This document shows, piece by piece, positions 58,490 through 58,637 of a DNA stretch of 64,000 bases. Numbering within the stretch: the stretch's first letter is position 1; each line of letters starts with the position of its first letter. The position numbers and the translations under genes are program-made. Source of the DNA: Escherichia coli. GTDB taxonomy: Bacteria; Pseudomonadota; Gammaproteobacteria; Enterobacterales; Enterobacteriaceae. The DNA lies in the NCBI RefSeq assembly GCF_003334355.1, contig NZ_QOWP01000003.1. The stretch is one strand, 5' to 3'. The notes under the pieces were generated by a model that was given only the letters and a program-made list of their open reading frames with translations, was not told where the DNA came from and did not search any database.

Positions 58490-58637
58490 AAAGCATCAAC
58501 ACCAACCGGAACCTCCACCACGTGCTCGAATGAGGTGTGTTGACGTCGGGGGAAACCCTCCTGTGTACCAGCGGGATAGAGAGAAAGACAAAGACCGGAA
58601 AACAAACTAAAGCGCCCTTGTGGCGCTTTAGTTTTGT
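58490..58637 (+). ncRNA. Candidate small RNA (RyjA-like position) ending at a bidirectional terminator shared with soxR
   Basis: Strong hairpin aactaaagcgcc-cttg-ggcgctttagtt followed by ttttgtt at 58605-58637; 5' end not identifiable from sequence; identity recalled from K-12 map only. Confidence 0.3.

Follow-up and report, generated by a model that had tools for sequence, protein, structure and literature searches.

The small RNA gene ryjA (sraL) and its convergent neighbour soxR meet at a common terminator-type hairpin in Escherichia coli

In the 64,000-nt stretch of E. coli DNA analysed here (the window), the interval between ghxP (yjcD; 56733-58082, minus strand) and the 154-codon soxR gene (58628-59092, minus strand) holds a 141-nt small RNA gene, ryjA (sraL), at 58495-58635 on the plus strand; it points toward soxR and is convergent with it. 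The open reading frames of the window for both flanking genes agree with the annotation of strain K-12. Using the Rfam 15 covariance models on positions 50000-64000, we found that 58495-58635 (+) matches family RF01408 (sraL) over the whole model (1-142/142) with 153.3 bits, where the gathering score is 39 (E = 2.5e-35), and a local Rfam scan gave sraL again (E = 2.1e-36). Alignment of 58440-58660 with E. coli K-12 MG1655 showed 100% identity. The K-12 record places the ncRNA ryjA (b4459) at 4277926-4278066 on the minus strand, soxR at 4277469-4277933 on the plus strand and ghxP from 4278479 onward; mapped through the alignment, K-12 ryjA falls on 58495-58635 (+) of the window, the same bases as the Rfam match, with an 8-nt overlap with soxR. 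An earlier note on this DNA had named RyjA, mapped to the soxR-ghxP interval, as the likely identity of an RNA that converges on soxR at a common terminator, and had suggested Rfam and the K-12 annotation as the places to check; the Rfam score, the K-12 identity and the b4459 mapping bear this out, and ryjA falls here and not elsewhere. The span given then, 58490-58637, located the RNA correctly and missed its exact ends, which are annotated at 58495 and 58635. A permissive Rfam scan of 58000-59200 yielded no second family, the only further signal being a sub-threshold match (23.7 bits) of the sraL model itself to the opposite strand at the palindromic terminator. RyjA/SraL is thus an already known RNA that is fully annotated in K-12; it was discovered in 2001 and has both an Rfam family and published targets.

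Two neighbouring elements were observed in passing. Upstream of ghxP (58143-58355) lies a cluster of PurR-box-like sequences, GCAAACGTTT at 58199, GCAAACGATT at 58242, GCAAACGTTA at 58341 and GCGAAACGTTA at 58145; the cluster accounts for three of the ten matches with at most one mismatch in the window, all within 150 nt, and is embedded in 17-nt and 13-nt direct repeats. Judged by its letters, the cluster would be consistent with the membership of ghxP in the PurR regulon (PMC8376909), and several PurR operators in one leader may merit a look. Further away, 51184-51255 on the minus strand matches Rfam naRNA4 (RF02564), the REP-element-derived nucleoid-associated RNA, with 76.9 bits against a threshold of 59.5.

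Of 5426 complete E. coli genomes, 5421 carry the 141-nt ryjA sequence, 5401 of them at 99% identity or more; for the surrounding 1095 nt, only 3530 genomes reach this level, which argues that the RNA is under stronger constraint than its surroundings. Outside the K-12 reference, RefSeq/PGAP genomes of E. coli generally have soxR alone annotated under the ryjA match. Beyond E. coli, we scanned a species-representative genome collection with the pattern ACCGGAACCTCC N{22,38} CGGGGGAAACCC, in which both blocks are invariant by construction and the remainder is free to vary, and recovered 53 loci from about 20 genera of Enterobacteriaceae, including Escherichia, Salmonella, Citrobacter, Enterobacter, Klebsiella, Raoultella, Leclercia, Lelliottia, Cedecea, Trabulsiella, Atlantibacter, Pluralibacter, Pseudocitrobacter, Silvania and Huaxiibacter. 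These loci conserve the RNA together with a -10 box of the sigma-S type (TAnAnT with TAA after it) and a convergent soxR, which adjoins the RNA in 52 of the 53. The sole locus without a SoxR CxGCGCLS motif within 800 nt downstream of the RNA belongs to Citrobacter sedlakii (L041), in which soxR may be displaced or divergent.

Individual genomes showed some irregularities. Two loci carry non-enterobacterial labels, a 'Bacillota bacterium' metagenome-assembled genome (L021, JAEWQV010000038.1) and 'Chryseobacterium sp. 18061' (L034, CACSKA010000007.1); over the aligned promoter and RNA the former is the E. coli sequence and the latter resembles a Citrobacter locus of the same project, and both are probably contamination or mis-binning. 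In E. coli strain 405 (L058, NZ_CM132948.1) an IS200C element sits after ryjA nucleotide 112 (about 58606), at the foot of the terminator hairpin, and parts the body of ryjA from its terminator and from soxR. In E. coli AR Bank #0346 (NZ_CP066366.1) the match is broken in two, and the annotation beneath it lists two fragments of soxR and an IS1B transposase, which suggests an IS1 insertion in soxR.

Immediately upstream of the RNA, and numbered with 58495 as +1, the alignment revealed two conserved promoter blocks on the plus strand. The first is the -10 hexamer TACAAT, which is followed by TAA and thereby takes the form of a sigma-S-type extended -10 (58483-58491). Across 53 distinct sequences the hexamer reads TA(C/G)A(A/C)T, with A-11, A-9 and T-7 present in 53/53 and T-12 in 47/53, and the adjoining TAA is kept at T-6 in 51, at A-5 in 52 and at A-4 in 40 of them. 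The second block, CTGGCRAA, occupies the -35 region (58460-58467, or -35 to -28) at a distance of 17 nt from the -10 hexamer; here G-32 is present in 53/53, G-33 and A-29 each in 51/53 and T-34 in 47/53 sequences, and the E. coli version agrees with TTGACA at only 3 of 6 positions. A sigma-70 consensus scan left the ryjA promoter unflagged (8 of 12 consensus positions), a miss that fits its weak -35, and we relied on conservation instead. Silva et al. 2013 cited the same -10 and TAA features as RpoS-type and reported for Salmonella that SraL was about 500-fold lower in an rpoS mutant, that a promoter fusion was RpoS-dependent and that RpoS was enriched more than 100-fold in ChIP (PMC3753932). 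E. coli RyjA has been listed among RpoS-regulated sRNAs that are induced in stationary phase (PMC12266141). RyjA is probably transcribed from this promoter of its own, composed of TACAAT plus TAA and a weak -35, and, going by published work that was mostly done in Salmonella, its transcription would be RpoS-dependent and increase in stationary phase.

To assess the structure of the RNA we tested the Rfam structure on an alignment of 54 sequences. Standard pairs were found in 96.1% of pair cells, as compared with 40-54% when the partners were slid by 1-3 columns; eight pairs showed changes on both sides, most of them in the 5' closing stem (helix 1) and in the helix UCCUGU/GCGGGA, and none of 500 shuffles reached the observed values. 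The test learns nothing from the helices GG/CC, GGG/CCC and GUC/GAC, which show no variation, and the search pattern itself fixes two 12-nt blocks. The 5' domain (58496-58543) is closed by helix 1 (58496-58502 with 58537-58543), which is paired in 97% of cells and covaries in four of its seven pairs, and it encloses the invariant single-stranded block AACCGGAACCUCC (58504-58516); the block ACCGGAACCTCC, as part of the search pattern, is invariant by construction. The central domain (58545-58589), which contains the pattern block CGGGGGAAACCC, comprises the helices GUC/GAC, GGG/CCC and UCCUGU/GCGGGA, the last of which (columns 74-79 with 87-92) reaches 98.3% pairing and shows compensatory change in three of six pairs. 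Next comes an A/G-rich linker, AUAGAGAGAAAGACAAAGACCGGAAAACAAAC (58578-58611, RNA positions 84-117), that carries an (ARN)x motif (PMC5575007) and in which GGGATAGAGnGAAAGACAAAGACCGG is near-invariant in the alignment although it lies outside the search pattern. The minimum-free-energy variant of the E. coli RNA, in which CCUC pairs with GAGG, did not improve the fit to the alignment; its CCUC/GAGG pairs are constant throughout, and the small inner helix is paired in only 50% of cells. Folded as a whole, the RNA has an unexceptional energy (z = -1.69). Taken together, RyjA is predicted to fold into a 5' domain with a covarying closing stem, followed by a central domain and a linker rich in A and G.

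The RNA closes with a perfect 13-bp hairpin around the 5-nt loop CTTGT (58604-58634), which, from its inverted repeat and fold, is legible as an intrinsic terminator on either strand. Its arms, AAACTAAAGCGCC (58604-58616) and GGCGCTTTAGTTT (58622-58634), are 13 nt each and 100% complementary, with six G-C pairs, and the 12-mers aactaaagcgcc and ggcgctttagtt, on which the claim of a strong hairpin had originally rested, sit within them. The flanking runs described at that time are likewise in place, the A-rich AAAACAAA (58599-58606) upstream on the plus strand and TTTTGTTC (58632-58639) downstream, and the hairpin does overlap the soxR stop codon, TAA (tta on the plus strand, 58628-58630), which lies within the 3' arm. 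By our own estimate, 64 kb of DNA should hold well under one short-looped inverted repeat of 13 perfect base pairs by chance, so that the hairpin is unlikely to be accidental. On the plus strand the tail after GGCGCUUUAG is UUUUGUUC, with six U of eight, and the Rho-independent terminator of RyjA ends in the tail TGTTCATCTT, with UUU already forming part of the preceding stem; in the K-12 mapping the 3' end is annotated at 58635. In the soxR direction the hairpin is followed by the U-tract UUUGUUUU (58599-58606, minus strand) with seven U of eight, which on the plus strand constitutes the A-rich run 5' of the RyjA terminator; all 54 aligned sequences are A-rich at this place. Folding of the minus strand over 58575-58665 gave -32.1 kcal/mol (z = -4.0), and none of 200 shuffles was as stable. 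A consensus terminator scan flagged the plus strand only; on the minus strand the full 13-bp stem leaves a tail with 4 T in 8, because of which the terminator was missed. Both strands hence show the anatomy of a bidirectional terminator, a stable G+C-rich hairpin plus a U-tract. RyjA ends at this 13-bp intrinsic terminator, and the same hairpin could also stop the soxR transcript, a use that we infer from anatomy as read in the sequence. Our literature search on bidirectional terminators and soxR returned only an unrelated use of the phrase and no soxR 3'-end mapping.

How closely soxR approaches the hairpin differs among the loci. Escherichia species, Citrobacter amalonaticus and two other lineages, whose tails were extended independently, are the only ones with the soxR stop within the stem; 23 loci have it 1-4 nt beyond the stem, where the T-run serves as TAA, 16 of the 53 have it 10 to 130 nt away, and one has it 514 nt away. 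This geometry offers an explanation for the C-terminus of E. coli SoxR, ...LLEDEQN, which is 2-3 residues longer than that of most genera (...LLEDD or ...LLEED): the soxR reading frame runs through the T-run into the terminator stem, whereby the stem end and the T-run supply its last two codons (Q and N). The two other lineages (L023 and L055) independently gained similar extensions that end in ...KN.

The terminator stem is near-invariant over the roughly 20 genera. Nine of its 13 pairs never vary, only three G-U cells occur, and the sole compensatory change, U-A to G-C, is found in Pseudocitrobacter. Since internal helices covary freely and this stem hardly does, one might speculate that it is held by a double or triple constraint composed of termination on two strands, sequence-specific recognition by ProQ and soxR/RyjA coupling, a notion that we consider rather improbable. 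Termination on two strands would constrain the stem because a G-U intermediate on one strand is a C-A mismatch on the opposite one. Coding by soxR cannot account for the invariance, as few lineages apart from Escherichia have the stop codon within the stem.

This arrangement led us to weigh whether RyjA, besides acting in trans, takes part in cross-regulation in cis, with collision between ryjA and soxR transcription or read-through antisense RNA at the common hairpin linking the RpoS response of stationary phase to SoxRS, the regulator of oxidative stress. The convergent arrangement is kept in 52 of 53 loci, the soxR stop lies at most 4 nt from the hairpin or inside it in most of them, and the stem stays near-invariant even where soxR does not overlap it. 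However, a soxR end that is 10 to over 100 nt off in 16 of 53 loci, and 514 nt off in one, shows that tight coupling is not required, a strong terminator speaks against much read-through, and the literature that we found reports no cross-talk between RyjA and soxR. We therefore regard such coupling as improbable.

We also asked whether the region might encode a small protein instead of, or in addition to, the RNA. The earlier note had seen no protein-like ORF here; mechanical reading frames do exist, so this needs a qualification, but for conserved ones it stands. On the sense strand there is an ORF of 62 aa from 58422, or of 26 aa from an ATG at 58530 inside the RNA (58530-58610), and on the antisense strand an ORF of 88 aa (58375-58641, minus strand). 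Both are open in E. coli, and at least one RefSeq genome, NZ_CP033096.1 (strain CP53), lists the antisense one as hypothetical protein WP_001325981.1, probably a spurious gene call. Yet the sense ATG occurs in only 10 of 53 distinct sequences and lacks a Shine-Dalgarno sequence, and of 54 sequences, 15 have a sense ORF of 20 aa or longer and 8 an antisense ORF of 80 aa or longer; the antisense frame shrinks to 35 aa in E. albertii and is unconserved beyond the E. coli clade. Moreover, single-base indels between genera disrupt both frames, and conservation tracks base pairing, not codons. On account of this low conservation we rejected both ORFs as coding, and a small protein encoded here appears highly improbable. 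The idea that the hairpin is the terminator of soxR only, with no independent RNA gene on the plus strand, draws on the soxR stop within the hairpin and on the U-tract that follows it on the minus strand, but can be practically dismissed, given that about 110 nt upstream of the hairpin fit the Rfam model and carry covarying helices, that a conserved promoter lies at the right distance, and that the RNA is annotated in K-12 and has been detected by published Northern blots.

We are thus highly confident that 58495-58635 (+) is the gene for RyjA/SraL, a trans-acting sRNA of Enterobacteriaceae; none of our results speaks against this identity, and the weak points concern its mechanism in E. coli. 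Most of what can be said about its partners and targets comes from Salmonella. There, SraL represses the tig mRNA, and the pairing was proven by compensatory chromosomal mutations (PMC3753932). For rho, the Salmonella work describes pairing of SraL with the rho leader that prevents premature Rho-dependent termination, at a site that overlaps a putative rut site, and ProQ and/or Hfq are able to mediate the SraL-rho interaction. In stationary-phase Salmonella, SraL makes up about 50% or more of all ligands of ProQ (PMC8136791). Without Hfq, SraL decays faster in Salmonella and its steady-state level is lower (PMC3753932); an early Salmonella Hfq co-immunoprecipitation contained 0 sraL reads. E. 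coli RyjA undergoes polyadenylation, and a pcnB mutant accumulates it at full length (PMC5389530); RyjA overexpression in E. coli caused no biofilm, motility or fimbriae phenotype.

In keeping with this literature, RyjA may be bound and stabilised by ProQ and/or Hfq, a proposal that leans mostly on the Salmonella work, and would be degraded after polyadenylation by poly(A) polymerase I. Two features of the E. coli RNA bear on its protein partners. RyjA (84-117) has been listed among sRNAs with one (ARN)x motif for the distal face of Hfq (PMC5575007), and an A-rich stretch 5' of the terminator is typical of ProQ-dependent sRNAs (PMC9977716). RyjA has such a stretch, which is able to pair with the U tail, and its predicted fold lengthens the stem in this way. 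Both the (ARN)x motif and the A-rich 5' flank, as sequence features, would be consistent with Hfq and ProQ as partners.

By analogy with Salmonella, RyjA is proposed to bind the tig 5' UTR by base pairing immediately upstream of the ribosome-binding site and to lower the amount of trigger factor, and to pair with the rho leader, where it would block Rho-dependent premature termination and raise the level of rho mRNA. In E. coli, RNA positions 28-34 (GUGCUCG) are a perfect 7-nt complement of tig -29 to -23, just upstream of the Shine-Dalgarno sequence, in agreement with the published position, yet a match that is within chance expectation. A search for exact complements returned two 7-mers with E. 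coli tig, where about 1.4 are expected by chance, and one with rho, which is around the chance level. Similarly, windowed duplex energies with the E. coli leaders (-21.6 kcal/mol for tig and -22.1 kcal/mol for rho) were no better than those of shuffled sequences (means of -22.3 and -22.1, respectively). Whole-RyjA RNAduplex runs against whole leaders were discarded as they produced meaninglessly long duplexes, with shuffles as good in 23 of 500 cases for tig and 258 of 500 for rho.

As a discovery, ryjA carries little weight, since it is published and annotated. As a calibration the case is of use, in that a reader without tools found a real sRNA, its strand and its terminator using sequence alone. 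The comparison contributes two small additions, namely that the common soxR/ryjA hairpin arrangement is conserved across Enterobacteriaceae and how the ...EQN tail of SoxR originated.

Set against known systems, the copy in the window is the K-12 allele of RyjA/SraL (RF01408; b4459) and shares its sequence, length, strand, position, promoter, structure and terminator without any difference. With SdsR (RyeB) it has in common an RpoS-dependent promoter, accumulation in stationary phase and conservation across enterics, whereas the sequences are unrelated and the targets are distinct, ompD for SdsR as opposed to tig and rho for SraL (PMC3753932). Like bidirectional intrinsic terminators between convergent genes, the hairpin at the end of ryjA is a single G+C-rich palindrome that is bordered by an A-run at one end and a T-run at the opposite end; it differs from the typical case in that one partner is an sRNA whose terminator doubles as a protein-binding 3' end and, in Escherichia, in that the stop codon of the other partner lies inside the stem. 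Finally, RyjA resembles ProQ-associated structured sRNAs such as RaiZ in its long terminator hairpin of about 12-13 bp, the ProQ CLIP consensus being a 12-bp hairpin, and in the A-rich stretch 5' of the terminator, and SraL is a dominant ProQ ligand in Salmonella. While RaiZ derives from an mRNA 3' end, RyjA is intergenic with its own promoter and also carries an (ARN)x motif of the Hfq type and has a stability that is affected by Hfq.
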